From a virus (taxonomy: Duplodnaviria; Heunggongvirae; Uroviricota; Caudoviricetes), in IMG/VR virus record IMGVR_UViG_3300029071_000017: DNA of 30,192 nucleotides. One strand, given 5' to 3'. Numbering within the stretch: position 1 is the first letter of the stretch; each line of letters starts with the position of its first letter. The notes under the pieces are model-generated. The model did no database searches, was not told the DNA's origin, and saw only the letters and a list, made by a program, of their open reading frames with translations. The translations under genes were made by a program, and so were the position numbers. Of the stretch, positions 679 to 30,192 are shown piece after piece.

Positions 679-1326
679 TCAACGACCAATCACCACAACC
701 TGACCACCGTCCCCCTCGTCTGCCGTGCTGATCTCCTGAGAAGCCACCCGCGACCCCACGCGCATTTCACCGTACAGAACAGGCAGAACATTGCCCTGGG
801 CAACCATGTTATCCAGTGATGAGAAATAGGTGTTCTGCTTACCGTTATCCGTGCTGGTCGCTGTGGGCGTCCGGGCTTTCGGTGCCAGCATCTGGGCCAC
901 ACCACCCAGGATCATACTGGCCCCTGCCGCATACATGCCCGATACAGCCGCGGCACCCAGCCAGCCCACAGGGTTCCACCATGCCACCGCAATCAGCGCC
1001 GCACCCAGCACTGCCTGAAAAACACCGCCACTTTTAGCTCCCGCCAGACGCGGCACAATGTGGATCACGGCACCATTTGCCAGCGACTCATTAAGACGGG
1101 CAGATAATTCATTTTCGCCTGCATCACGCCCGGCAATGCGCACCTGATACCAGCCCTCATTCAGTTTCTGACGAAACGCCGGGAGCTGTGTGGACAACGC
1201 CCGGATGGCTTCAGCCCCCGTTTTTACACGAAGGTCGATGCGGCGGCCAAATCGTTGTAAATCCCCGTAAAGGCAGATGCGTGCCATGCCCGGTGACGCC
1301 AGAGGGAGTGTGTGCGTCGCTGCCAT
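679..1326 (-). CDS. I: Tail assembly protein I
   Basis: 215-aa ORF MAATHTLPLASPGMARICLYGDLQRFGRRIDLRV... matches lambda gpI along its length; sits between K and J as in lambda. Confidence 0.9.
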   Translation of the reverse strand: MAATHTLPLASPGMARICLYGDLQRFGRRIDLRVKTGAEAIRALSTQLPAFRQKLNEGWYQVRIAGRDAGENELSARLNESLANGAVIHIVPRLAGAKSGGVFQAVLGAALIAVAWWNPVGWLGAAAVSGMYAAGASMILGGVAQMLAPKARTPTATSTDNGKQNTYFSSLDNMVAQGNVLPVLYGEMRVGSRVASQEISTADEGDGGQVVVIGR

Positions 1327-17703: not shown

Positions 17704-18450
17704 ATGCGACATAATTTTTCTAAAGACACTATAAAAAAATTAGCAGAGCGGGCAGCATTCATTTGTTCAAACCCTTCATGCCCTAGATTGACCATTGGCC
17801 CATCAATTGATGGCAATAAATCAATCAAGACAGGAGTTGCTGCTCACATATGTGCAGCATCTCCTGATGGCCCACGCTATGACATGTCACAATCAGAAAC
17901 AGAAAGGAAGTCAATTAACAATGGCATATGGCTGTGTGCTACTTGTTCTGTATTAATAGATAAGAATCAGGGGCTAGACTATCCGGCACCTGTATTAAGA
18001 AAATGGAAAAAAGATCATGAAAGCCTTATAAGCTCCTGTCTTGAAGGTTCGATTAATATTACCTTCGATGCTTTGAAATATATTCAACAGCATGATGAAA
18101 GAAATCTGGCAAAAAAGATTATAAATGAATTGGATGATAAAGGGGCTTTGTTCGTAGAATATCATCTTGAAAACCCCTGTTTTGTTGCCGAATCACTCAA
18201 AGAGTTAAGAACCTGTTTGACCTCTTTGCTTTCTCAAATCCCAGATGAATCACCTCTATTTATCGTTTGCAAGTCAATTCGAGAAGCATGCCGTTATTAT
18301 ATGAACAACACTTCTAAAGACGCAGGGATTAAAGAGTTAGAATTTTCGTTGGGAGCTGTCAGAAAAATCGTAGGTATCAACGTTAAAAGAATATCAGAAA
18401 CCTACGGGGTTAAACCTAGCCCACAATTATCTACCATAATGCCAGATTAA
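17704..18450 (+). CDS. Moron-encoded protein with HNH-like Cys/His motifs; function unknown
   Basis: 248-aa ORF on the strand opposite to the late genes, AT-rich relative to flanks; N-terminal C-x4-C ... AHI ... NGIWLCATC pattern; own downstream terminator. Confidence 0.6.
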   Translation: MRHNFSKDTIKKLAERAAFICSNPSCPRLTIGPSIDGNKSIKTGVAAHICAASPDGPRYDMSQSETERKSINNGIWLCATCSVLIDKNQGLDYPAPVLRKWKKDHESLISSCLEGSINITFDALKYIQQHDERNLAKKIINELDDKGALFVEYHLENPCFVAESLKELRTCLTSLLSQIPDESPLFIVCKSIREACRYYMNNTSKDAGIKELEFSLGAVRKIVGINVKRISETYGVKPSPQLSTIMPD

Positions 18451-18458
18451 ATCTGTTA

Positions 18459-18500
18459 CGCAGCAACAAAGTTAAACTCTATGTTGCTGCCTTAATTTTA
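18459..18500 (+). terminator. Intrinsic terminator of the moron gene
   Basis: GCAGCAACA-(13 nt loop)-TGTTGCTGC followed by CTTAATTTTATT, right after the moron stop and just downstream of the Q stop. Approximate coordinates. Confidence 0.6.
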
Positions 18501-18863
18501 TTACTCCATTTCTAAACGAATATCCAGCATCGAGAGACAACCATCTATAAACCCTTCAGCCAACTGTATCTCTATACGTATCAATTTCTCATCTTTTTTG
18601 TATGCTTTTGCTATCTTCCTTTTCGAGATGCCATACAGGTAATGAGCCACAATCAGAGAGTGCTCATATGGTTTTCTCTTCTTAAGAAGAGCAAGACAAC
18701 CTTCAATAATTAATGCATCACTATCTGAACAAGCCTGACGTGTTTTGCTTGTATAGGGAAGAAGCCCTTTAAACCCAGCAGCTATAGGAGAATAGTCTAC
18801 TCCAGAACTATCACTCGCCGCCCATGCTCCCCAACGATCCAGAACCATCTGAATATCACGCAT
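18501..18863 (-). CDS. Late antiterminator Q (phage 82 / QuuD-like type)
   Basis: ORF 18501-18878; start set at MRDIQMVLDRWGAWAA... with GGAG upstream; C-terminal ...EGFIDGCLSMLDIRLEM resembles 82-type Q proteins as I recall them. Confidence 0.7.
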   Translation of the reverse strand: MRDIQMVLDRWGAWAASDSSGVDYSPIAAGFKGLLPYTSKTRQACSDSDALIIEGCLALLKKRKPYEHSLIVAHYLYGISKRKIAKAYKKDEKLIRIEIQLAEGFIDGCLSMLDIRLEME

Positions 18864-18880
18864 CAACTTTCTCCACAAAA

Positions 18881-19042
18881 TCAGGCCAGCACGCCAGTTG
18901 CCAGTGCACGATCGATAAAACGAAATATCAGCTCCAGCTGGGAGCCATATTTCTCTTCAAATGCCACGGTATCCGCATGCAGCTCGTCGTGATGCTTTCT
19001 GCACAAAGGCAACACAAAGAGGTCATGCGCTTTTGTACCCAT
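18881..19042 (-). CDS. Small hypothetical protein (about 53 aa) upstream of Q
   Basis: Not in the ORF track (under 60 aa); my own translation gives MGTKAHDLFVLPLCRKHHDELHADTVAFEEKYG... with an AGGGTGGA RBS. Coordinates hand-derived. Confidence 0.3.
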   Translation of the reverse strand: MGTKAHDLFVLPLCRKHHDELHADTVAFEEKYGSQLELIFRFIDRALATGVLA

Positions 19043-19099
19043 TCCACCCTGACCGTGGCCTATCAGGTGGTGGGGATCATCAGCAGACTTTCCACAACA

Positions 19100-19184
19100 N
19101 NNNNNNNNNNNNNNNNNNNNNNNNNNNNNNNNNNNNNNNNNNNNNNNNNNNNNNNNNNNNNNNNNNNNNNNNNNNNNNNNNNNN
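19100..19184. other. Assembly gap (85 N)
   Basis: Run of n characters in the sequence. Confidence 1.
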
Positions 19185-19868
19185 ATCCACTTTCAGCGCC
19201 AGCACCTTTTTCGCCTTATCCTGGATGATGCTGGTGGCAGGAACCGAAGGCACAAGGTCACTTTCCCGGGTGACAGACGGCACAACAGGCTTCGGTAATC
19301 TCAGTGCCTTACGGGCTGCGCTTTCCGGTAAGGCATCCGCCAGATCATTACGAACCAGCCACCAGCACAGTTCCGGCATTGTCACAACGTGACTGTCATC
19401 AAAACCGAGATCCCGACGCACAACAGATAACACCCAGCGAGCACAGTTATCCGTTGCCATTGATTCCAGCCGTTCCGTGAACTGATCGCGCAGCTGGTTA
19501 TCACAGTGCCAGCACAGACGGATTGCGCCCGGCGTGTGTCGCATTGTGGTCATGTTCTCGCTGTGCCAGTCGGAATGAGGCCACTGGCAGCCTTTTTCAC
19601 GAAGTAACCAACTTTCAAGACATTCCACGCCACCAGCACGACGGATCACTGCCTCATTGCGGAACACGGCCCGAACGGCAGGATCATCCGCCAGCGGTTG
19701 TGATGCCGCCGGAACGGCACCACTGGCGAAAGATGAATAACGCTCCGGCTCAGGCTCCAGCAGGACACGCCCCTGCATAAACAGGGGCATCAGCTCTGAA
19801 CCTGGCCTGAACAATACGATCCCCATACGCGGGGCAATTTCAGGGGTCAGTAGTGCTCTCACGGTCAC
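19185..19868 (-). CDS. Hypothetical nin-region protein, 3' end lost in the assembly gap
   Basis: Open frame from the Met at 19868 continuing into the N run; contains CWHC; follows the KilA-N gene with a 1-nt spacer. Confidence 0.5.
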
Positions 19869-19869
19869 C

Positions 19870-20667
19870 TCAATGAACGGTATCGAGCAGCTTTAACAGC
19901 TCAGGGAATCGGGATTCGAAGAAATGCGGCTGCGTCTCGCGCGGATTTGCGGGACTGGTGATGTTCTTGCCGAACATGCAACCTTTCGCTGTCAGCGACC
20001 AGAATTTTTTGATGTTGTTAATCGCGGTACGGCTGTATCGTTCGCGCTGCTCGACGATCCCCAGCTTCACCATCTGGTGATATGCCTGATTAGCTGTCAG
20101 GCGGATACCATACTGCTTCAGCAGTGCACTCAGTGACAGCGTGGGGCGGCTTGAGCCATCAGGCGCGTCAGCAGGAGCATCAATGGCATAGCGCGGTGCC
20201 AGATTCGGTAAGCCAACAGCCTCCTGAAGCTTCTGACAGGCTCCAAGCACTGATGAGTTAGACAGGTTTAATTCCCGGCGCATAAAGTCCAGCAGGATCA
20301 CACCAGCCTGCATCTTGTCAGCAGCCTGTCCGGATAATTTTTCCGGTGCGCTGGTTACCATGTCGAAAGTACGGATCACCTTCAGATGGAATGACGGGCT
20401 GATCCACATTGCATAGGCATACACCAGTTCTTTGCAGACATACGTCCCCTGGTTATTTCCGCCACGAATAACGTTAACTGGCTCTATATTGACCGAGTTG
20501 CAAATCTGCAACTCGCTTATTAAATGCTCAGTTTGCTCATTGCGGAGCCAGAATGCAGGCTTATGCTTATCCAGAGAACCAGCAGCCCTGTGCAGATCGT
20601 TCAGGCTGTAACGCCCATAAGCATCACGACGAACTTCAATACCATCAATAACCATCAGATTATTCAT
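19870..20667 (-). CDS. KilA-N domain protein (Roi/antirepressor-like)
   Basis: 265-aa ORF; N-terminal region ...YVCKELVYAYAMWISPSFHLKVIRTF... typical of KilA-N/APSES DNA-binding domains. Confidence 0.5.
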   Translation of the reverse strand: MNNLMVIDGIEVRRDAYGRYSLNDLHRAAGSLDKHKPAFWLRNEQTEHLISELQICNSVNIEPVNVIRGGNNQGTYVCKELVYAYAMWISPSFHLKVIRTFDMVTSAPEKLSGQAADKMQAGVILLDFMRRELNLSNSSVLGACQKLQEAVGLPNLAPRYAIDAPADAPDGSSRPTLSLSALLKQYGIRLTANQAYHQMVKLGIVEQRERYSRTAINNIKKFWSLTAKGCMFGKNITSPANPRETQPHFFESRFPELLKLLDTVH

Positions 20668-20686
20668 ACTTCGTTTCTCCTCTTAA

Positions 20687-21076
20687 TCAGGCGGCTGCAC
20701 CCGCCGTTTTCTCGTACTTACTGATAGTGATCTCGACCTTCCCTTCCGGGATAACCGGTCCCCACTCCACCAGCATTCTTTTCACCTGACTGTCGTCTTC
20801 CCACACACCCGCGTGGGTCAGGGCGTCAAACAGCGCCTTGTTATAGTTGTCCAGATCGCGGATCCGGTTATCCGGAGGAAACAACACGATCTCCACTGAA
20901 GCAGGTGCCGACGTTGGTTTCGGCAGACGACGTAACTGCTCAACTATTGCTGCGCACGCTGCACTCTGGAATTTTCGCCCCGCCGCGCTTATCAGGCTCT
21001 TACCAGCAAACGCCCCTTTGTTGGGGTGTCGCCAGTACGTGTTCACGCTGGGCGGAAAAGGCAGGATCAGCTTCAT
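20687..21076 (-). CDS. rusA: Holliday junction resolvase RusA
   Basis: 129-aa ORF with LPFPPSVNTYWRH ... RDLDNYNKALFDALTHAGVWEDDSQV, the RusA catalytic motif pattern. Confidence 0.85.
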   Translation of the reverse strand: MKLILPFPPSVNTYWRHPNKGAFAGKSLISAAGRKFQSAACAAIVEQLRRLPKPTSAPASVEIVLFPPDNRIRDLDNYNKALFDALTHAGVWEDDSQVKRMLVEWGPVIPEGKVEITISKYEKTAGAAA

Positions 21077-21399
21077 ACTTTCAGGCCCCTCTCATGTAAC
21101 CAGTGGGTTGCACGCAGCCTTGCGTTTTCCTCACCGGCAAGCAGTGCGCGGATAATCCCGACCGCCTCGCTGTCGTCGTCCTTCACCGCGGTATGAAGCG
21201 TTATCCCCCGGGCCACGCCACGCTTTATCGTGATGACGCCTTTTTTCTCCAGTGCGCGAAGATGCTCTACCGCTGCATTCACTGAACGGTATCCCAGCAT
21301 GGTTGCCACCTCCTGATTGGTTGGCGGAAAGCCACGCTCTTTCTGATAAGAAATCAGCATATCCAGCACCTGCTGCTGGCATTGAGTTAACGTCGTCAT
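21073..21399 (-). CDS. LexA N-terminal DNA-binding-domain-like protein (no peptidase domain)
   Basis: Start set at MTTLTQCQQQVLDMLISYQKERGFPPTNQEVATMLGYRSVNAAVEHLRALEKKGVI, which parallels the LexA winged-helix domain; about 108 aa, no S24 domain; ATGA overlaps on both sides. Confidence 0.55.
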   Translation of the reverse strand: MTTLTQCQQQVLDMLISYQKERGFPPTNQEVATMLGYRSVNAAVEHLRALEKKGVITIKRGVARGITLHTAVKDDDSEAVGIIRALLAGEENARLRATHWLHERGLKV

Positions 21400-21893
21400 T
21401 ACGCCCCCACGTAATTCCCTGACAGATACCACTCATCACTCGATACAGCGCGCTTGCTGCTTTTCCGTAAACACAGCTCACGACGCGCCAGAAAATTGTT
21501 TCGTTCTGGCTGGGAGTGGCTTTCACGGAATGCCGCCATCCACACGGTTGCAGCACGACGGTATAAGCCCCTGGACTCCAGTTCTTCAGCCTGGCGGGTC
21601 AGGCACAAAATCACCCGTGGATCGTTAGTGCCGACATAGAAATTGCGCACAGGTCTGGTTTCTCGAACTGGTTGTGGTTCCGGTTCCTGCGCTCTCTCAG
21701 TCAGGCGCGGGAAATGTCTGCGTGTATCTCCTTCACAACGGTGAGCCACACGCCCACTCTGACGTAACTTGCTTGCAGACTGCAGAACGCGCTGCCGTGA
21801 GTAACCTGCAAAAGCATCCGCAATGTCTCCGGAAGTACACCCCGGATGGGCTTCAATGCATTTCTGAACGTCATTTAACAGACTCATGATCAC
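21399..21893 (-). CDS. PerC-like transcriptional regulator
   Basis: 164-aa ORF; C-terminal half ...QAEELESRGLYRRAATVWMAAF...RRELCL resembles the PerC/Pch signature as I recall it; translationally coupled to the replication initiator. Confidence 0.4.
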   Translation of the reverse strand: MIMSLLNDVQKCIEAHPGCTSGDIADAFAGYSRQRVLQSASKLRQSGRVAHRCEGDTRRHFPRLTERAQEPEPQPVRETRPVRNFYVGTNDPRVILCLTRQAEELESRGLYRRAATVWMAAFRESHSQPERNNFLARRELCLRKSSKRAVSSDEWYLSGNYVGA

Positions 21894-22846
21894 CCTCTGA
21901 ATCCTGCCGGGATCTGGCTGTAGTCCACGTTGTCGTAACTGGCTTTGAAGTACGGGTCCTCGCGTTTTTCGGTGTACGTGCTGACGGACGGCGATAAGCG
22001 CAGGGAAAGCTCATCCCATTTTTCCCGCAGCTTCGACGGGCTGAGCACGTTACGGCACCAGAACGGATCGCGGCTGACACGGCTGTACATCTCGCAGATT
22101 TGTTTGTGAGTACGCCCATCCTGTACACACATCAGGCGAATTTCGTTTGCCCAGGCTGTCCAGTTCGGTTCTTTGGGACGAACCACCTCGCCGTCACATT
22201 CGGCAGCCTGCTCGTACAGGGCGATGATTTTTTTCCAGAGCCACTGTGCGCAGGTCAAATCATCCTGCGTCCCCCACTGGCGCTTTTTAGGGCTGAATAC
22301 AACCGCATCAGGATGGCGAGTTAAAAAATCCTGTTCAGCCGTCTGCGTGTCCGGTTGCGAAGCGTCCGGACGAGAAGGTTTTTTATCTGACGGATCATGT
22401 TTTGATTTTACTGACGGATCCCCGCCAGATTCTGACGGGTGAAAACCCGCTTTTTTGCCAGATTTCGACGCATCAAATTTTGACGGGTCAGATTTTGATG
22501 CGTCAGATTTTGATGCGTCAGATTTTGACGGGTCAGAATCTGACAGTTGAGAAAATGCCGCTGCCTGAAGCTTCGCAACGTTAAGCTGATAAACATTCGA
22601 CGCATTGCGGTTACCCTGGCGACGCGCCTTACGCGTTAACCAGCCTTCTGCTTCCAGCCGTGCGATAGCCGTTCTGACGGTACTCATCCCCGCGCCAATC
22701 TGACGGGCAATGGTTTCAATTGATGGCCAGCACACACCTTCGTCATTACTGAAATCAGCCAGGCGGGCCATAATTGCCACGCTGGATAACTTCATGCCTG
22801 ATGCAGCGCAACCATCCCATACATAGCCGGTTAATTTAGTGCTCAT
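21890..22846 (-). CDS. Replication initiator (O-like) with HTH N-terminus and iteron-encoded SKSDA repeats
   Basis: 318-aa ORF; N-terminal HTH-like region; central SKSDASKSDASKSDPSKFDASKS repeats encoded by tandem 15-bp DNA repeats; position after the cro/cII-like genes. Confidence 0.65.
   Translation of the reverse strand: MSTKLTGYVWDGCAASGMKLSSVAIMARLADFSNDEGVCWPSIETIARQIGAGMSTVRTAIARLEAEGWLTRKARRQGNRNASNVYQLNVAKLQAAAFSQLSDSDPSKSDASKSDASKSDPSKFDASKSGKKAGFHPSESGGDPSVKSKHDPSDKKPSRPDASQPDTQTAEQDFLTRHPDAVVFSPKKRQWGTQDDLTCAQWLWKKIIALYEQAAECDGEVVRPKEPNWTAWANEIRLMCVQDGRTHKQICEMYSRVSRDPFWCRNVLSPSKLREKWDELSLRLSPSVSTYTEKREDPYFKASYDNVDYSQIPAGFRG
22426..22548. repeat. Origin-like iteron array: about 7 tandem 15-bp repeats CAGATTTTGAYGSGT inside the initiator gene
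   Basis: Direct repeats read in the sequence (cagattctgacgggt, cagatttcgacgcat, caaattttgacgggt, cagattttgatgcgt x2, cagattttgacgggt, cagaatctgacagtt). Approximate coordinates. Confidence 0.65.
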
Positions 22847-22855
22847 GACCGACCT

Positions 22856-23194
22856 CTATTTCCCTGAATTTACGACGAAACTGTTCGAGCGGACTGAAGC
22901 ATTCATGCTCATAACCTTCGCGGAGGTAGATAACCCGTTGTGTTTCCGGCTCCCAACGAATGACTCTGACGGGCACTCCGTAGTGATCTTTGAACCAGCG
23001 GTTAACTTGTCGCAAAGGACTGTCTCCTTCTGCCGGTTGAAATCACCCACAGCCCACTCTGCAAAGCTGTGGGTTACAATTTCCCTGTCACCTGGTACAT
23101 TCACTGCATAGCAATATTCCACCTTCGCTTTTCCACCCGGTACAGGAAGCGCAATCAGTTGCGAGCGACGGTAGTGTGTTGTTAAACTGTTCAT
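22856..23194 (-). CDS. Hypothetical protein
   Basis: 112-aa ORF whose start overlaps the upstream gene stop and whose stop lies about 10 nt before the initiator start; no recognisable motif. Confidence 0.4.
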
Positions 23195-23760
23195 GCGTTA
23201 GTTTCTCCACAACCAGAAGCAATCGACGCCACGACGCCCGGAGCTGCACACTCGCGGGCGTCATTACTTTCTGAAATGCAAAAAATTTTGTAGACAAGTG
23301 CTGCATGCTCCTGCAGCTTCGAAATTGAGAGATACAGCTCGTCGTTAATTGCTGTCTTCTCATGCGGTTCCACTACACCGTCTTCGATTGCTGAACGAAT
23401 CTGTTTTGAATAACTGCCGATCTGTTCAATGACTTCCAGCAGACGCTGGTTAATATCGGCGTTGTCCACATCCTCGACGTCAGGAAGAGACACAAAGACG
23501 CCATTTGCAGACTGCGCCACAGCATCAGCAATGAAGTGAGTGCCACCAGCACGCTGTAAAACCATTGCCCATCCCAGCGGGAAAATCTGATCGCCATCTG
23601 CACGAAGGCGGTTGAATAAAGCGTTTTCTGTTACATCGAGCCAGTCAGCCGCTTCAGCGTAACCACCCGGCAACGCCGCGATAGTTTTTCTGACAGCTTT
23701 CACGTACCACTCAGGCTGTTTTTCTATTTTCCAGTGATGCTTACCCACGATTAGCCTCAT
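23191..23760 (-). CDS. Putative early regulatory protein (CII/YdaT-like position)
   Basis: 189-aa ORF immediately downstream of the cro-like gene; the family assignment is a weak recollection. Confidence 0.4.
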
Positions 23761-23791
23761 CGTTCTGTGGTTAAAAATTGAAAGTGTTCTG

Positions 23792-23992
23792 CTAATCTTT
23801 CGGATAGATATCCGGTCTTAAGTCAGATTTCGTAATTGCACCTGACGTGCATTGCTCAAGTTTTTTAGCCAGCACAAAACTGGCTTTTTTATAGCCATTG
23901 AAAACCAGCCGTAAGTAGCCAGGTGTTGAGCCAACTTTTCCGGCCAACTCGCCCTGCTGTTCTTTGGTTAAAGAGTCCCAATACGCCTTCAT
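23792..23992 (-). CDS. Cro-like HTH regulator
   Basis: ORF 23792-24295; start set at MKAYWDSLTKEQQGELAGKVGSTPGYLRLVFNGYKKAS (HTH) with GGAGG upstream; divergent from the repressor gene. Confidence 0.65.
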   Translation of the reverse strand: MKAYWDSLTKEQQGELAGKVGSTPGYLRLVFNGYKKASFVLAKKLEQCTSGAITKSDLRPDIYPKD

Positions 23993-24082
23993 ACAATATG
24001 TACCTCCGGTATACATATTACATGATTGAAATGAACCTTCAAGATACTTGTACCTTAACGGTACAAGGGTTTTAATTTTGTT
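23993..24082. promoter_or_regulatory. Immunity operator/promoter region (OR; divergent pR and pRM)
   Basis: Perfect 21-bp palindrome CTTGTACC-TTAAC-GGTACAAG (about 24046-24066) and imperfect palindrome ATATGTACCTCCGGTATACATAT (about 23994-24016); pR candidate TTGAAG-16-TAATAT on the minus strand; pRM candidate TTGTAC-17-TTTAAT ending about 7 nt before the repressor ATG. Confidence 0.6.
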
Positions 24083-24757
24083 ATGAAAACAATCCATGAC
24101 ATCCGGCGGTCTAACGCCAGAAAACTGAGAGATGGTGTTGGCGGGAATTCTTCCTTTGCCACTATGATTGATCGCGAGCCAACCCAGACCAGCAGGTTTA
24201 TGGGAGATGGTGCTACTAAAAATATCGGTGACAGCATGGCACGACACATCGAAAAATGTTTCGACCTGCCTGTCGGATGGCTCGATCAAGAACACCAGAC
24301 AACGAACATCACAAAAAAACCTGATGTTTCAATCACTAATAAACAAATCACATTAGTCCCTGTCATATCATGGGTACAGGCCGGAGCATGGAAAGAAGTT
24401 GGATATTCTGAGGTTGATTTGAGCACAGCAGAAACGTATCCCTGCCCTGTCCCCTGTGGGGAAATGACTTATATCTTGCGGGTGATAGGTGATTCAATGA
24501 TTGATGAGTACCGCCCGGGAGACATGATTTTTGTCGATCCTGAAGTACCTGCCTGCCACGGTGACGACGTTATTGCATTGATGCACGATACAGGTGAAAC
24601 CACCTTCAAAAGGTTGATAGAAGATGGGACACAGCGTTATCTCAAAGCGTTAAACCCAAACTGGCCTGAGCCTTACATTAAGATCAACGGTAATTGCTCT
24701 ATAATTGGTACAGTGATTTTCTCAGGAAAACCAAGAAGATACAAAATCAAAGCCTAA
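24083..24757 (+). CDS. CI/C2-type repressor (HTH N-terminus, LexA-like S24 autopeptidase C-terminus)
   Basis: 224-aa ORF; C-terminal ...ISWVQAGAWKEV...VIGDSMIDEY...ETTFKRLIEDGTQRYLKALNPNWPEPYIKINGNCSIIG parallels P22 C2 and the LexA catalytic Ser/Lys region. Confidence 0.85.
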   Translation: MKTIHDIRRSNARKLRDGVGGNSSFATMIDREPTQTSRFMGDGATKNIGDSMARHIEKCFDLPVGWLDQEHQTTNITKKPDVSITNKQITLVPVISWVQAGAWKEVGYSEVDLSTAETYPCPVPCGEMTYILRVIGDSMIDEYRPGDMIFVDPEVPACHGDDVIALMHDTGETTFKRLIEDGTQRYLKALNPNWPEPYIKINGNCSIIGTVIFSGKPRRYKIKA

Positions 24758-24769
24758 TCAATGTTTATG

Positions 24770-24792
24770 AACCTGCTTCGGCAGGTTTTTTT
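24770..24792 (+). terminator. Intrinsic terminator of the repressor gene
   Basis: AACCTGC-TTCG-GCAGGTT hairpin followed by 7 T directly after the repressor stop. Approximate coordinates. Confidence 0.7.
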
Positions 24793-24796
24793 ATAC

Positions 24797-24830
24797 TTGA
24801 CAATGTACCTTTTAGATACATAATGTACCC
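24797..24830 (+). promoter_or_regulatory. pL-like early promoter with operator-like AATGTACC repeats
   Basis: TTGACA-16 nt-CATAAT; AATGTACC occurs at -35/spacer and again overlapping -10, the same TGTACC core as the OR palindromes. Approximate coordinates. Confidence 0.6.
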
Positions 24831-24991
24831 AGGCGAAACAACAAACAGGCAGGACGTCCATGAAGTAGCCCCCTGGAGCATATGAAGTCCAGGATGATTC
24901 GTTAGCAACAAAAAAGCGCCCTACAGGACGCTTAGCTCTTTAACAATCTGGTCCCCATCAACAAGTAACTGATAACTTGAGGAGGTGTGAA

Positions 24992-25198
24992 ATGCACAAA
25001 ACAGAACCCAAAATCGTCGCGCCCGGATACACAAATGAGGAAATTTACGAGTGGATGGCAAAGAAGCTGGCAGCTATAAACCAGCTTCGTGAAGTGCTGT
25101 CTTATCGACAGGAAACAATAGACTCCTTAAAAAAACTGGATCAGGAAATCACGGTTTTATCACAGGATGTTACTTTAGATATTGTGCAGACAAATTAG
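24992..25198 (+). CDS. Small hypothetical protein (68 aa), first ORF of the rightward early operon
   Basis: ORF 24977-25198; start set at MHKTEPKIV with GAGGAGG 6 nt upstream; no Arg-rich motif, so not an N-type antiterminator. Confidence 0.45.
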   Translation: MHKTEPKIVAPGYTNEEIYEWMAKKLAAINQLREVLSYRQETIDSLKKLDQEITVLSQDVTLDIVQTN

Positions 25199-25604
25199 GA
25201 TCCCATTCATTTTCGTCAAAATCATCAAAGTGATGAATTTGTGATCTCCAGTCTCGATAATCTAAAAATTTCTGGGCGGTTACGCTTATTTTATCAAGTG
25301 TGAGTTCATCCTGAATTGAAAGAAGAAGTTCATCAAATTTCATCTCATTAATCTGTTTTGGCATCCAGTGATGCTTCATCAGAATAAGGTGAACCAGAGC
25401 CTTTTTCCCATTCAACTGATTATAGGGAGTGCCGAATTTCTTCCGGTGCTCATGTAAGACAAGGTCCAGAAGAGTAAGTAATGTTGCCCTTGATTCGACT
25501 TTGCTTATTTCGACTGATGACACTACCCCACTGATTTCAATGCCCCGATACTTTCCAACATTTTCACAGTGGGATTTGTACAGCGTGTAGATATTACCGG
25601 ACAT
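25170..25604 (-). CDS. Hypothetical 144-aa protein, AT-rich, convergent to the early operon
   Basis: Clean ORF antisense to pL-direction transcription, AT-rich relative to flanks, AAGGA RBS; 3' end overlaps the 68-aa ORF by about 29 nt. Confidence 0.5.
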   Translation of the reverse strand: MSGNIYTLYKSHCENVGKYRGIEISGVVSSVEISKVESRATLLTLLDLVLHEHRKKFGTPYNQLNGKKALVHLILMKHHWMPKQINEMKFDELLLSIQDELTLDKISVTAQKFLDYRDWRSQIHHFDDFDENEWDPNLSAQYLK

Positions 25605-26148
25605 TTCTTTTCCTTTTGCGTTGTTGGGGATAACCAGATTAACCGAATCCTTGTTGTTGGGGAATAACCAGGTCCACCTCGCCTGATGTGGCTAAAAGCA
25701 GGCACATAACAGCTAAGTATTTTCAACCAGAGAGAATCCTTAGCGTTGTGGTGAATGCGGCTCAGCGCACGCGGGTTAAGGTTGAGGCTGACAGTCGACC
25801 TTCTGTGGATACCCACCCGCCTGGTGTGCAACCTTCGCCAGGCACCGGGAGGCACCCGGCACCACAACTTTATGCTGTGTGTAGTCCTGGCGGTACCAGT
25901 TTGTACCCTTGCTTCCGGCTGGTACCGTCCTTTTTACAAAACAGAGAAGAGCATCACCGGACGACGGGCTCATAACCCAATCCATCCGGGCGGCTGCCAC
26001 CGCAGGTGTTCTTCTCTGTTTTGTGGAGAAACTAACCGCCCCTACGGGGGCATTTATGGAAATGTAATTGACTCAATAATCGCCGGACGGTGAGGGCTTC
26101 CTTTTACCCGAATTCAGCGCGGTGCAGCGCATATACGTGGAGAACAAA
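25605..26148. other. GC-rich non-coding region with direct and inverted repeats (candidate structured RNA / regulatory region)
   Basis: No credible ORF. Direct repeats TTGTTGGGGATAACCAG and TTGTTGGGGAATAACCAG (about 25621-25671); 9-bp inverted repeat CGGTACCAG/CTGGTACCG (about 25891-25927) followed by TTTTT; 15-bp perfect inverted repeat ACAAAACAGAGAAGA/TCTTCTCTGTTTTGT (about 25936-25950 and 26010-26024). Confidence 0.4.
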
Positions 26149-26685
26149 ATGTCATTTATTAAAACTTTTTCCGGGAAGCATTTTTATTATGACAGGATAA
26201 ATAAAGACGACATCGTTATTAACGATATCGCGGTTTCCCTTTCAAATATCTGTCGCTTTGCAGGACATCTTTCACACTTCTACAGTGTCGCCCAACATGC
26301 GGTGCTTTGCAGCCAGCTGGTGCCGCAGGAATTTGCTTTTGAAGCTTTAATGCATGATGCAACAGAAGCATATTGCCAGGACATCCCCGCACCACTGAAA
26401 CGACTTCTTCCTGACTATAAACGGATGGAAGAAAAAATAGACGCCGTAATCCGTGAGAAATACGGGTTACCTCCTGTTATGAGCACGCCAGTGAAATATG
26501 CCGATCTCATTATGCTGGCAACCGAACGCCGCGATCTCGGGCTTGATGATGGCTCTTTCTGGCCTGTGCTGGAAGGTATCCCGGCAACAGAGATGTTCAA
26601 CGTGATTCCACTGGCTCCAGGCCATGCCTACGGGATGTTTATGGAACGCTTTAACGAATTATCGGAGTTACGCAAATGCGCATGA
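26149..26685 (+). CDS. HD-domain phosphohydrolase
   Basis: ORF 26122-26685; start set at MSFIKTF with GGAG upstream; His...HD pattern (...SVAQHAV..., ...LMHDATEAY...). Confidence 0.6.
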   Translation: MSFIKTFSGKHFYYDRINKDDIVINDIAVSLSNICRFAGHLSHFYSVAQHAVLCSQLVPQEFAFEALMHDATEAYCQDIPAPLKRLLPDYKRMEEKIDAVIREKYGLPPVMSTPVKYADLIMLATERRDLGLDDGSFWPVLEGIPATEMFNVIPLAPGHAYGMFMERFNELSELRKCA

Positions 26686-27038
26686 ATGTTTTCGAAATGG
26701 AAGGGTTTCTTCGTGGGAGATGTGTACCGCGAGATCTGAAAGTGAATGAAACGGATGCTGAATACCTGGTGCGTAAATTCGATGCGCTTGAAGCTAAATG
26801 TGCAGCACAGGAAAACAAAGTAATACCAGTGTCAACTGAACTGCCACCAGCAAATGAAAGTGTTTTGTTATTCGATGCTAACGGAGAAGGCTGGCTAATT
26901 GGCTGGCGTTCTCTCTGGTACACCTGGGGACAAAAAGAAACCGGAGAATGGCAGTGGACATTTCAGGTCGGGGACCTTGAAAACGTCAATATCACTCACT
27001 GGGCAGTAATGCCAAAAGCACCGGAGGCTGGAGCATAA
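26676..27038 (+). CDS. Hypothetical early protein (Trp-rich small protein)
   Basis: 120-aa ORF overlapping the HD gene end by 10 nt; same strand and operon as xis/int. Confidence 0.5.
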   Translation: MRMNVFEMEGFLRGRCVPRDLKVNETDAEYLVRKFDALEAKCAAQENKVIPVSTELPPANESVLLFDANGEGWLIGWRSLWYTWGQKETGEWQWTFQVGDLENVNITHWAVMPKAPEAGA

Positions 27039-27343
27039 TGACCACTTTTACCGACAAAGAACTGATTAAAGAAATTAAAGAGCGTATCAGCAGCCTTGAC
27101 GTGCGAGACGATATTGAGCGCCGTGCTTATGAAATCGCACTCCTATCTCTGGAAGTAGAACCAGATGAACGCGAAGCTTATGAATTATTCATGGAAAAGC
27201 GTTTTGGTGACTTAGTAGATCGTCGGAGAGCAAAAAACGGCGATAACGAATACATGGCATGGGATATGACTCTCGGTTGGATCGTCTGGCAGCAACGAGC
27301 TGGTATCCATTTCTCAACAATGTCACAGCAAGAGGTGAAATAA
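27038..27343 (+). CDS. Hypothetical early protein
   Basis: 101-aa ORF with ATGA overlap upstream and TAATG overlap with xis. Confidence 0.5.
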   Translation: MTTFTDKELIKEIKERISSLDVRDDIERRAYEIALLSLEVEPDEREAYELFMEKRFGDLVDRRRAKNGDNEYMAWDMTLGWIVWQQRAGIHFSTMSQQEVK

Positions 27344-27693
27344 TGGAGCCATACAGCCTCACACTCGATGAGGCCTGTCATTTTCTCAAGATATCCAGAC
27401 CGACTGCCATTAACTGGATACGCACAGGGCGTCTTCAGGCAACACGCAAAGATCCCACTAAGAATAAATCTCCTTACCTCACAACACGACAAGCCTGCAT
27501 TGCGGCTCTTCAGTCTCCGCTGCATACTGTCCAGGTGAGCGCGGGTGATGGCATAACAGAGGAAAGAAAATGTCACTCTTCCGCAGAGGTGAAATATGGT
27601 ACGCCAGTTTCACATTGCCGAACGGTAAAAGATTTAAACAGTCTCTTGGAACAAAGGACAAAAGGCAGGCGACAGAACTCCATGACAAGCTAA
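27343..27693 (+). CDS. xis: Excisionase (P22-type)
   Basis: ORF 27259-27693; start set at [38 protein letters not shown], which resembles P22 Xis as I recall it; immediately upstream of and overlapping int. Confidence 0.75.
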
Positions 27694-28733
27694 AGGCTGA
27701 AGCATGGCGGGTCAGCAAACTTGGTGAAATACCTGATATAACGTTCGAGGAAGCGTGTGTCAGGTGGCTTGAAGAGAAAGCACATAAAAAATCACTGGAC
27801 GATGACAAAAGCCGGATCGGATTCTGGCTTCAACATTTCGCAGGAATGCAACTAAGAGACATTACTGAATCAAAAATTTATTCAGCAATGCAGAAAATGA
27901 CGAACCGGCGTCATGAGGAAAACTGGAAACTCAGGGCAGAAGCATGCAGAAAAAAAGGGAAACCTGTTCCAGAATACACGCCAAAACCAGCGTCCGTTGC
28001 AACGAAGGCTACGCATCTTTCATTTATAAAGGCCCTACTAAGAGCCGCAGAGCGTGAATGGAAAATGCTGGATAAGGCACCAATTATTAAAGTGCCTCAA
28101 CCAAAGAATAAACGGATCCGCTGGCTGGAGCCCCATGAAGCACAAAGGCTGATTGATGAATGTCCGGAGCCATTAAAGTCTGTTGTTGAATTTGCACTGG
28201 CAACAGGCTTAAGACGCTCGAACATCATCAACCTTGAATGGCAACAAATAGATATGCAGCGCCGGGTGGCATGGATAAACCCGGAAGAGAGTAAATCAAA
28301 CCGCGCAATTGGCGTTGCGCTGAATGATACTGCATGTCGCGTATTGAAAAAACAAATCGGGAATCATCACCGTTGGGTATTTGTGTACAAGGAAAGCTGT
28401 ACCAAACCAGACGGAACGAAAGCGCCAACAGTAAGGAAGATGCGGTATGACGCAAACACAGCCTGGAAAGCGGCGCTGAGACGGGCTGGTATTGATGATT
28501 TCAGATTTCACGACTTGAGACACACCTGGGCAAGTTGGCTGGTTCAAGCCGGAGTCCCGTTGTCAGTGTTACAGGAAATGGGAGGCTGGGAGTCTATCGA
28601 AATGGTTCGTCGATATGCTCACCTTGCACCTAATCACCTTACCGAACACGCACGGCAAATAGACTCGATCCTGAACCCATCGGTCCCAAATTTGTCCCAG
28701 TCAAAAAATAAGGAAGGTACTAATGATGTGTAA
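27570..28733 (+). CDS. int: Tyrosine integrase (P22 Int-like)
   Basis: 387-aa [51 protein letters not shown]...; C-terminal R...HDLRHTWAS...MVRRYAHL catalytic signature; ends 14 nt before the tRNA 3' end. Confidence 0.9.
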
Positions 28734-28747
28734 CTTATTGATTTAAA

Positions 28748-28823
28748 TGGTGCCGATAATAGGAGTCGAACCTACGACCTTCGCATTACGAATGCGCTGC
28801 TCTACCAACTGAGCTATATCGGC
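28748..28823 (-). tRNA. thrW: tRNA-Thr (anticodon CGU), thrW-type; prophage attachment site at its 3' end
   Basis: Reverse complement reads GCCGATATAGCTCAGTTGGTAGAGCAGCGCATTCGTAATGCGAAGGTCGTAGGTTCGACTCCTATTATCGGCACCA: 7-bp acceptor stem, CGT anticodon in a 7-nt loop, T-arm GGTTCGACTCC, 3' CCA. Coordinates within 1 bp. Confidence 0.9.
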
Positions 28824-28938
28824 CCTGAAAAGGACATGTTCACGAACGTGAATCACGGTGGACAAGGTTAAAACTAACCGGGCGATGCGTCAATGGCCTT
28901 GTGAATCAAATGGCTACTTTTGCATCACCCGGTTTTAT

Positions 28939-30192
28939 TTACGCACGAACGGTGTAATCACCAATACCGATCCACTTGTAGGTGGTCAGCGCTTCCAGCC
29001 CCATTGGTCCGCGTGCGTGGAGTTTTTGCGTGCTTACCGCCACTTCCGCGCCAAGACCAAACTGGCCGCCGTCGGTGAAACGTGTAGACGCGTTAACGTA
29101 AACAGCAGAGGAGTCCACTTCATTGACAAAACGCTGGGCATTGCGCATATCACGCGTCAGGATCGCATCGGAGTGTTGCGTCCCGTGTTCACGAATATGG
29201 GCGATGGCGTCGTCAAGATCGCTGACGATTTTGACGTTCAAATCTAACGACAGGAATTCATCGTCATACTCTTCCGCCTTAACAGCCACCACTTTCGCAG
29301 ATCCTGCCTGCAACTGCGCCAGTGCCGCAGCATCGGCGTGTAACGTCACGCCGCTTTCCGCCATTTGCTTGCTTAACGCAGGCAGGAAGTTATCAGCGAT
29401 GTTTTTATTCACCAGCAACGTTTCTACCGTATTGCAGGTACTCGGACGCTGGGTTTTCGCGTTGACGATCACTTTCAGGGCTGCAGAAATGTCAGCACTT
29501 TCATCAACGTAAATATGGCAGACGCCAATGCCGCCAGTGATCACCGGAATTGTCGACTGCTCGCGGCACAGCTTATGCAAACCAGCACCACCACGCGGGA
29601 TCAACATGTCGATGTATTTATCCATGCGCAGCATTTCACTCACCAGCGCGCGATCCGGATTATCAATCGCCTGCACTGCGCCTGCCGGTAAACCGCAGGA
29701 TTTCAGGGCGTCCTGAATCACCGCTACCGTTGCAGCGTTAGTGCGACAGGTTTCTTTGCCGCCGCGCAGGATCACCGCGTTACCGGTTTTCAGACACAGC
29801 GAAGCGACATCAACTGTCACGTTCGGACGCGCTTCATAAATTACACCTATAACACCCAGCGGCACGCGGCGACGCTCCAGACGCAGACCGCTGTCCAGCA
29901 CACCTCCATCAATCACCTGCCCTACCGGATCGGCAAGATTACACACCTGCCGCACATCGTCGGCAATGCCTTTCAGGCGCGCGGGCGTTAACGCCAGACG
30001 GTCAAGCATCGCTTCGCTAAGGCCATTGGCACGCGCGTCAGCAACATCCTGGGCGTTAGCATCGAGGATGCTTTCGCTCTGTGCTTCCAGCTCATCAGCG
30101 ATCTTTTCCAGCACGCGATTTTTTTCGCGGCTGGAGAGTTGCGCTAATTTATACGAGGCTTGCTTCGCAGCAATGCCCATTTGTTCCAGCAT
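28939..30192 (-). CDS. proA: Gamma-glutamyl phosphate reductase (host gene, complete)
   Basis: 417-aa [41 protein letters not shown]... matches E. coli ProA; start codon is the last three bases of the window. Confidence 0.95.

Follow-up and report, generated by a model that had tools for sequence, protein, structure and literature searches.

A probable repressor-controlled early-left promoter followed by a conserved leader RNA and an rrn-type boxA: candidate signals for N-independent antitermination in an e14-type lambdoid prophage

The window analyzed here is the whole of a 30,192-nucleotide stretch of viral DNA (Caudoviricetes; IMG/VR record IMGVR_UViG_3300029071_000017), and our interest lies in positions 24797-25198, where the early-left operon of a lambdoid prophage begins. 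On the plus strand, this region holds a near-consensus promoter with two predicted operators, a conserved structured RNA at the 5′ end of the leader (the 5′ RNA), a hairpin followed by a boxA of the ribosomal RNA operon (rrn) type, and a 68-amino-acid (aa) open reading frame (ORF) that is the first of the operon. The first-pass annotation, which was made from the letters of the DNA, had described a pL-like promoter and a long leader ahead of a non-N ORF, and it did not notice the 5′ RNA or the hairpin-boxA unit in that leader. The prophage lies at tRNA-Thr(CGU) (28748-28823, minus strand), beside proA, with integration at thrW. Its leftward-equivalent operon runs on the plus strand from 24797-25198 to yfdR, yfdS, yfdT, xis, and int, and its rightward-equivalent operon extends on the minus strand to a Q-type antiterminator at the operon end (18504-18878; Pfam Phage_antitermQ, 175 bits). 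The immunity region is 98.4% identical to that of Shigella phage SfIV, and prophages in many E. coli genomes are 99% identical to the window. The prophage has the immunity genes of E. coli K-12 e14, namely a repressor gene (cI analogue of the YmfK/CohE type, 224 aa; 24083-24757, plus strand; Pfam Peptidase_S24, 92.8 bits), annotated as ymfK or LexA family in a 99%-identical E. coli prophage, together with cro/ymfT (23792-23992, minus strand) and the CII(CP76)-type gene ymfL (23191-23760, minus strand), so that by sequence comparison the immunity is of the e14/SfV type.

The promoter (TTGACA at 24797-24802 and CATAAT at 24819-24824, with a 16-nt spacer) matches the consensus at 11 of 12 positions and is the best promoter-like site within 23600-26300, a region in which such sites as a class are not enriched (4 seen, 5.1 expected). 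The intrinsic terminator of the repressor transcript (8-bp stem plus T-run, 24769-24788, plus strand), which sits after the repressor stop codon and carries a terminator annotation in phage Ayreon, is on the same strand, and 9 nt separate its stem from the promoter, which accords with the first-pass description of a near-consensus promoter directly after the repressor terminator. The hexamers are identical in e14, SfIV, and Ayreon, and the Ayreon record annotates a promoter there. Transcription is predicted to start at about 24831, and a start near this position gives an untranslated leader of ~160 nt.

Two copies of the 8-mer AATGTACC, noticed earlier as operator-type repeats, are present at the promoter (24802 and 24822), but they are not a repeat in their own right and instead form the left half-sites of two adjacent 17-bp operators. 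The 8-mer count is weak evidence alone, because its three copies (the third, at 23094 on the minus strand, is unrelated; 0.69 expected) are reached in 3 of 100 shuffles. The 17-bp site TGTACC-N5-GGTACA, allowing up to two mismatches, occurs four times in 30 kb (23999, 24049, which is perfect, 24804, and 24824) against 0.61 expected, none of 100 shuffles reaches four, and all four sites lie at the rightward operator region OR (two) or at the promoter (two); TGTACC on either strand is found 7 times in 23990-24845 (0.48 expected). The predicted operator OL1 (24804-24820, TGTACC-TTTTA-GATACA, one mismatch to the palindrome) fills the spacer between the -35 and -10 hexamers, and OL2 (24824-24840, TGTACC-CAGGC-GAAACA, two mismatches) spans the predicted start. 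OR (23999-24065), between cro and the repressor gene, contains sites at 23999-24015 (two mismatches), 24032-24048 (three, weak), and 24049-24065 (perfect palindrome).

Comparison with relatives that share the immunity region (e14 of K-12, SfIV, an E. coli prophage, and Ayreon) revealed that the half-sites are conserved while the 5-bp spacers differ, being TTTTA, CACGA, TTTGA, or CTTGA at the first site and CAGGC, CAAGA, CAACC, or TAAAA at the second, and conserved half-sites around a variable central 5 bp are the usual signature of an operator. With this comparison and the operators common to OR, it is highly probable that the promoter and its operators are a repressor-controlled pL/OL, as the first-pass annotation had supposed. 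The promoter/operator part is of a known kind, and the predicted 17-bp site defines the operator of the e14/SfV immunity group. As in lambda pL/OL and in e14 (CohE/YmfK), the promoter lies downstream of the repressor gene in the same direction and has palindromic operators in common with OR, although the window has two clear OL sites where lambda has three, and the TGTACC-N5-GGTACA type is unlike lambda's. In e14, the promoter and operators are almost identical to the window's, and the 5′ RNA is present, but the boxA unit is not. We also read by eye from the sequence a possible maintenance promoter of the repressor, TTGTAC-17-TTTAAT (24048-24085), which is overlapped by the perfect palindromic operator and whose start, at or next to the ATG at 24083, would give a leaderless mRNA.

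A sensitive BLAST search with the leader found that a 65-nt piece of it (24837-24905) recurs in phages with unrelated repressors and promoters, namely SfII, Citrobacter phiNP, Salmonella ST64B and SEN34, Yersinia YeP1-3, Pantoea AH07, Klebsiella phages, and mEp460. In viral contigs, a scan for the pattern yielded at least 120 loci, which together with the earlier ones gave 101 distinct sequences in a gap-free alignment. The conserved element delimited by these covariation alignments is a 64-nt three-way junction (24840-24903, plus strand; 79.5 bits with our RNA model R1). Its enclosing helix P1 pairs 24840-24845 with 24898-24903, P2 pairs 24848-24850 with 24868-24870 (GGC/GCC) around a conserved 17-nt loop, AGGACGCCCACGAAGUA, P3 pairs 24872-24876 with 24889-24893, and AUGA (24894-24897) is the junction linking P3 to P1. 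P1 occurs as AGCGAA/UUCGCU, GUCAUC/GAUGAC, and CCACC/GGUGG, and P3 as CCUGG/CCAGG, CCCGG/CCGGG, CCGGU/ACCGG, CCGAC/GUCGG, and others. Across the 101 sequences, 95.5% of the P1 and P3 cells are paired, compared with 72% in shuffles and 19-50% in slid controls, and 345 cells carry double changes against 119 in shuffles. A second set, gathered through the boxA unit and not through the RNA core, behaved alike (92% against 80% paired; 90 against 22 double-change cells), and in it the P2 loop and GGAUGA are conserved at 85-95% or more. RNAalifold recovers P1 and P3 unaided, and mutual information gave no pairs beyond these two helices, nor any tertiary or loop-loop pairs. P2 is unproven, because only one-sided changes were seen in both sets. 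Judged by its covariation, the 5′ RNA is a real structured RNA.

The 5′ RNA keeps its place immediately behind the early-left promoter, next to the repressor gene, in more than 100 distinct prophages with unrelated immunity regions. In 123 of 129 loci, a repressor gene reads in the same direction and ends ~90-170 nt before the 5′ RNA, being of the S24 type in 75 and a RacR-like helix-turn-helix protein in 48, and beyond it lies a diverging cro/YdaS-type gene. For promoters scoring at least 9/12, the distance from the end of the -10 hexamer to P1 is most often 12-15 nt, which means that P1 begins around +5 to +10 of the transcript; in the window it begins at about +10, counted from the predicted start. 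The genes downstream vary, from yfdRST-xis-int in the window to RecE (exonuclease VIII) in Rac-like elements and HNH-kil-gam-recT-exo in SEN34. There is normally one copy per locus, and model R1 finds one in the window. Locus L100 has, besides an intact copy, a truncated one without the P2 loop core ~600 nt further downstream (975-1039, minus strand), which resembles the scar of a recombination event around an inserted gene.

The 5′ RNA is also widespread. In K-12 itself, e14 carries it ahead of ymfJ, and the Rac prophage lacks it, though Rac-like prophages elsewhere have it; in one of these (L012, 11128-11215, minus strand), we observed an Rfam isrB match (99 bits) antisense to the start of a RecE-like gene. 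Among species-representative genomes, 44 of 80 pattern matches are full-length elements, all but two of them in Enterobacterales (Xenorhabdus, Photorhabdus, Yersinia, Serratia, Pantoea, Klebsiella, Enterobacter, Citrobacter, and others); the other two come from one Pseudomonas and one Chryseobacterium assembly, which may be contaminated, and the actinobacterial pattern matches were rejected as chance partial matches. The element is present in 1846 of 5426 complete E. coli genomes, in up to 4 copies each, with nothing annotated over it.

The RNAs most comparable in setting are the put RNAs of phages HK022 and HK639, which are cis-acting antiterminators that bind the β′ zinc-binding domain of RNA polymerase. 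According to a 2025 review, put is the only phage RNA that binds polymerase to block termination (PMC12360218), and putL pairs from +3 of its transcript (PMC9378689). The 5′ RNA is like put in that it occurs in a phage without an N-type antiterminator, lies within a few nucleotides of the 5′ end of the early-left transcript as putL does, measures ~65-70 nt with two stem-loops, has terminators downstream, and belongs to phages of enterobacterial hosts. It differs from put in that no sequence or structure-model similarity is detectable, a third helix encloses both hairpins to form a three-way junction, each phage has one copy with no putR equivalent, and it is far more widespread than the ten known put sequences, its role as an antiterminator being that of a candidate. 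Homology with put was tried and rejected, since our covariance model misses putL and putR of HK022, both by default and with filters off, and putL of HK639 with default filters; for want of a model match, we did not file the 5′ RNA as a put RNA. A short-word BLAST against put gave only words of 7-12 nt, nhmmer listed nothing, and the words common to both RNAs, CGAAC..GGC and CAGGAUGA, occupy different structural contexts. In Rfam 15, nothing overlaps 24840-24903 on the plus strand even at expect values (E) up to 10, and at gathering thresholds no match falls on the element in 14 related loci. We also compared it by eye with the hammerhead core, a tRNA-like layout, RfaH ops, domain IV of the signal recognition particle RNA, and the purine riboswitch, and rejected them for misfits in junction lengths and key bases. 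A search of the available literature returned no paper with the core sequence of the 5′ RNA and nothing on the leader of e14 ymfJ. The 5′ RNA is apparently an undescribed and very common RNA family.

The second RNA signal starts ~10 nt past the 5′ RNA. A terminator scan and folding place an A-run and a hairpin at 24908-24933 (hairpin 24914-24933), ending 1 nt before the boxA, GCUCUUUAACAAU (24935-24947, plus strand), which is identical to the 13-mer of the rrnB leader. Within the window, GCTCTTTAACAAT at 24935-24947 is the sole exact boxA match, and an exact 12-mer match is calculated at ~0.004 expected in 30 kb on both strands. It fits the gamma-proteobacterial consensus GYTCTTTAANA, as given by Baniulyte et al. 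2017; their boxA target list, in the part covered, does not include the window site among its E. coli genomes. The unit, composed of the A-run, GCGCCC-loop-GGACGC, boxA, and AAUCUGG, is shared by at least 120 viral contigs, while its loops and flanks vary; its conserved AAUCUGG resembles AAUCUGUGUGGG, which lies further downstream of boxA in rrnB, and there is no full GU-rich boxC. Of 100 newly fetched loci that bear the unit, 87 also contain the 5′ RNA according to the RNA model, as do all 17 earlier ones (~89% together). The hairpin itself is asymmetric, for on the minus strand (24933-24914) it has 8 perfect pairs followed by U6 (-12.4 kcal/mol) and is a clean intrinsic terminator, whereas on the plus strand it is weak, with a conserved C.A mismatch and a poor U-tract (-7.8 kcal/mol). 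A third leader module, GCGCAG..AAACGTTCCGCTGG..GGCGATA, was observed between the 5′ RNA and the hairpin-boxA unit in loci L079, L094, L259, and L265 and in SEN34 (L255, 3068-3110), and it is absent from the window.

Compared with the rrn leader (boxB-boxA-boxC, with NusB/S10, NusA, NusG, SuhB, and S4), the window unit has the identical 13-nt boxA and a hairpin 1-3 nt upstream of it, and in neither is a phage protein needed, but the hairpin sequence is unrelated to rrn boxB, a clear boxC is missing, the hairpin doubles as a terminator for the opposite strand, and the setting is a phage early operon behind another conserved RNA. Lambdoid nut sites with N are alike in that an early-left leader before the first ORF contains a boxA; in the window, the hairpin comes before boxA instead of boxB after it, and no N protein is present. 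From the sequence, we read no boxB-like hairpin in the 45 nt after boxA, and the rightward operon of the window has no second boxA site. The suhB leader likewise has a consensus boxA outside rRNA that recruits host Nus factors, a recruitment that is putative here. Stringer et al. 2020 reportedly described boxA-dependent regulation at CRISPR arrays. The window differs from both suhB and CRISPR boxA in its phage context and in its linkage to a second conserved RNA.

The first ORF of the operon (MHKTEPK..., 68 aa; 24992-25198, plus strand), preceded by a Shine-Dalgarno sequence (GAGGAGG, 24979-24985), is coiled-coil-like and acidic. It belongs to PHROG 1744, of unknown function (117 bits), is hypothetical in RefSeq, and has no Pfam match. 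The first-pass annotation had stated that this ORF follows a ~160-nt leader and is not Arg-rich, so that the phage seems to lack an N-type antiterminator, and both statements stand. The ORF contains only 2 Arg, and in 18000-30192 no ORF has an Arg-rich N-terminal motif, save for internal starts in a PerC-family gene (21399-21893). The SfIV genome paper likewise describes SfII, SfV, and SfIV as without N, cII, and cIII homologues (PMC3851460). Beyond the window, phmmer searches with the N proteins of lambda, P22, and phi21 found nothing in 129 loci bearing the 5′ RNA, and in SEN34 the 5′ RNA stands ahead of its operon with no N gene. A scan for Arg-rich ORFs across the loci was too permissive, nearly all matches being out-of-frame noise, and only one, in locus L053, held up. 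The 68-aa ORF follows boxA in 13 of 23 loci, and for this reason it is not an obligate partner of boxA. Its 3′ end overlaps by 29 nt (25170-25198) that of a convergent gene of 144 aa ('ECs1072 family', PHROG 5286; 25170-25604, minus strand), and the two co-occur in 13 loci. The stretch 25605-26036 showed no consensus promoter from which the 144-aa gene could be transcribed. On the minus strand, the hairpin of the boxA unit most likely terminates this convergent gene.

Candidates for read-through lie downstream. The untranslated leader of 160 nt should be exposed to Rho. Further on, 25715-25937 (plus strand) resembles STnc100, a structured small RNA of prophages (Rfam RF02076, 43.1 bits, E = 1.2e-7), below the gathering score of 47, which makes it likely a relative and not a certified member. 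Its 3′ hairpin (~25889-25927, 13 bp) with CUUUUU is a strong plus-strand terminator (-28.6 kcal/mol, z = -4.0), located inside the early-left operon and upstream of yfdR-yfdS-yfdT-xis-int. The ORF calls over 25715-25937 (SfIVp34/p35 and a RefSeq 'frameshifted' pseudogene) cover a stretch that is probably non-coding. Our first terminator scan, limited to loops of up to 8 nt, missed long-loop terminators such as the STnc100-like one, and it was repeated with folding; by the folding-based scan, 55 of the 81 distinct loci have one or more candidate terminators on the plus strand in the 2.5 kb that follow. Within 2-2.5 kb downstream (81-84 loci), terminator-like hairpins number ~2.6-2.7 per locus on the opposite strand against 0.5-1.4 on the same strand, an excess that fits many convergent accessory genes inserted in early-left operons. 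In this part of the operon, comparison of ~25690-26120 with SfIV (L001, 4556-6126) shows that ~1.3 kb of SfIV, including the DUF2303/YfdQ gene, is missing from the window, which suggests a deletion in the window prophage. Ayreon (L002, 3625-4200) and Stx2c-converting phages have the repressor, promoter, and operators as in the window, but, in place of the 5′ RNA, a different long GC-rich non-coding leader, which merges into the STnc100-like region and is not clearly put-like.

We propose that the region is a pL/OL combined with N-independent, RNA-based antitermination through the 5′ RNA and boxA, a reading to which we give roughly even odds (about 0.5); between RNA-based and absent early antitermination, the two options raised by the first-pass annotation, the evidence favors the former. 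In a lysogen, the S24-type repressor would bind the two adjacent 17-bp operators and shut the promoter, and after repressor cleavage transcription would proceed from ~24831. The first ~75 nt of the transcript would fold into the three-way-junction RNA, followed by the hairpin and the rrn-type boxA, and these RNA signals could stand in for the missing N protein: by analogy with putL of HK022, the 5′ RNA would modify in cis the polymerase that transcribes it, and boxA would load NusB/S10 and other Nus factors, as it does in rRNA operons. The elongation complex would then resist Rho in the leader, pass intrinsic terminators such as the one at ~25930, and reach yfdRST, xis, and int. In the opposite direction, the hairpin would stop the transcript of the 144-aa gene before the leader, promoter, and repressor gene and so shield these from antisense transcription, while early-left transcripts would pass. 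More tentatively, the 5′ RNA may represent a second kind of antiterminator RNA that modifies polymerase, unrelated to put in structure, and may replace N in many lambdoid, e14-, SfV-, ST64B-, and Rac-like prophages, often with an rrn-type boxA.

Several observations weigh against this proposal. The start site, the repressor binding, and any antitermination are all deduced from the DNA, and the analogy with put is one of position, size, and context only. Just 23 of 127 loci with the 5′ RNA (~18%) have a boxA within 330 nt, so the 5′ RNA must also work without it. In L053 (6071-6442), an Arg-rich ORF (KMRRHLERS) begins 200 nt after the 5′ RNA and weakly matches the N-like PHROG 271 (E = 8e-5), which means that the 5′ RNA and N are not strictly exclusive, although this is the sole case among the 129 loci of a 5′ RNA followed by an N-like Arg-rich ORF. 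In structure prediction, a check advised in the first-pass annotation, leader and element gain no folding energy over shuffled sequences (z = 0.73 and 0.14), and the element would never have been flagged by energy alone. Wobble pairs give no strand assignment, as the plus strand has 15 G.U cells and also 31 A.C cells that would pair as G.U on the opposite strand. The window copy has private substitutions at the otherwise nearly invariant positions 24857, 24861, and 24871 (columns 24, 28, and 38 of alignment A2), an A.C mismatch in P1 (24843, column 10) in common with five other sequences, and the lowest score among the scored full-length copies without indels (79.5 against 80-97 bits); the private changes, the low score, and the ~1.3-kb gap relative to SfIV mean that it may be decaying. 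Downstream, the plus strand has few strictly canonical terminators (0.54 per 2 kb). Lastly, where a boxA is close to a start codon its effect can be repressive, as at suhB (Baniulyte et al. 2017; PMC12360218).

The alternative that survives best keeps the promoter and operators as described and makes the 5′ RNA something other than an antiterminator, for example a stabilizing 5′ structure, a site for a conserved host factor acting in decay or translation of early-left transcripts, or a discrete trans-acting small RNA freed from the 5′ end; we consider it unlikely, but a serious contender. The lack of similarity to put, the very different downstream genes, mostly without boxA, and the single coexistence with an N-like ORF in L053 would all agree with it. 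A CsrA-type site may fit the GGA motifs read from the alignment, one in a possible small hairpin loop (AGGAC) and one in GGAUGA, and small RNAs are abundant in prophage regions of this type (bioRxiv 10.64898/2026.05.13.724894). However, long, near-invariant loops across a bacterial order suggest a specific partner and not a generic 5′ stem, the presence of the 5′ RNA ahead of ~89% of hairpin-boxA units ties it to a signal known only in transcription elongation and termination, and most loci have no terminator closely after the 5′ RNA, so a discrete small RNA is not obvious.

We regard as improbable that processive antitermination is missing altogether, with the hairpin serving only as the terminator of the 144-aa gene and boxA acting as at suhB; a Nus complex would then repress translation of the 68-aa ORF, promote Rho termination, and keep early-left expression low. 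The hairpin is indeed a perfect terminator on the minus strand only, and the A-run required for it is conserved in the unit; boxA lies 46 nt before the 68-aa ORF, and a distance below 50 nt is the arrangement by which Baniulyte et al. predict repressive targets; and minus-strand terminators outnumber plus-strand ones downstream of the promoter. A fixed translational target is nevertheless unlikely, since boxA units occur both with (13 loci) and without (10 loci) the 68-aa ORF and at a variable distance from the next ORF. Moreover, xis and int stand at the end of the same operon, past a strong terminator, and the 5′ RNA would be left unexplained.

It is very improbable that the conserved element acts through the minus strand or as DNA, for example as an antisense RNA to the start of the early-left transcript or as a single-stranded DNA structure. 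The excess of A.C over G.U cells and a slightly better unconstrained fold on the minus strand (-18.8 against -17.6 kcal/mol) speak for it, but the A.C cells come mainly from two lineages, 90 of 101 sequences have the better consensus P1 and P3 energy on the plus strand, and the tight spacing to the -10 hexamer makes sense for the plus strand only. In addition, no minus-strand promoter was found adjoining the 5′ RNA, and in the window and in loci with the unit directly after the RNA, the minus-strand terminator ends 5-10 nt before the element, so that minus-strand transcripts would not reach it. Equally improbable is a role of the 68-aa ORF as an unrecognizable protein antiterminator in the position of lambda N that acts on the hairpin-boxA unit, because, even though it is a conserved phage family (PHROG 1744) and the order of promoter, boxA-containing site, and first small ORF mirrors lambda pL-nutL-N, the protein is acidic with 2 Arg and no Arg-rich motif, it is missing from 10 of 23 boxA-bearing loci, and the hairpin is upstream of boxA, unlike the boxB downstream of it in phage nut sites.

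RNA-only processive antitermination in phages is known only from HK022 put and a handful of relatives, and how lambdoid phages without N achieve early-left expression, and with it recombination, excision, and integration, is a question left by genome papers. A covarying leader RNA at the same spot in hundreds of Enterobacterales prophages, including e14, and tightly linked to a consensus boxA, is a testable candidate for this role. If it acts on RNA polymerase, it would be a second natural RNA with which to study how nascent RNA reprograms elongation. If our proposal is true, these phages would borrow the host rRNA antitermination machinery without N, and an antiterminator RNA would lie unannotated in about one-third of complete E. 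coli genomes. Whatever its role, the 5′ RNA forms an abundant family without annotation, which merits an entry in Rfam and a place in the annotation of prophages.

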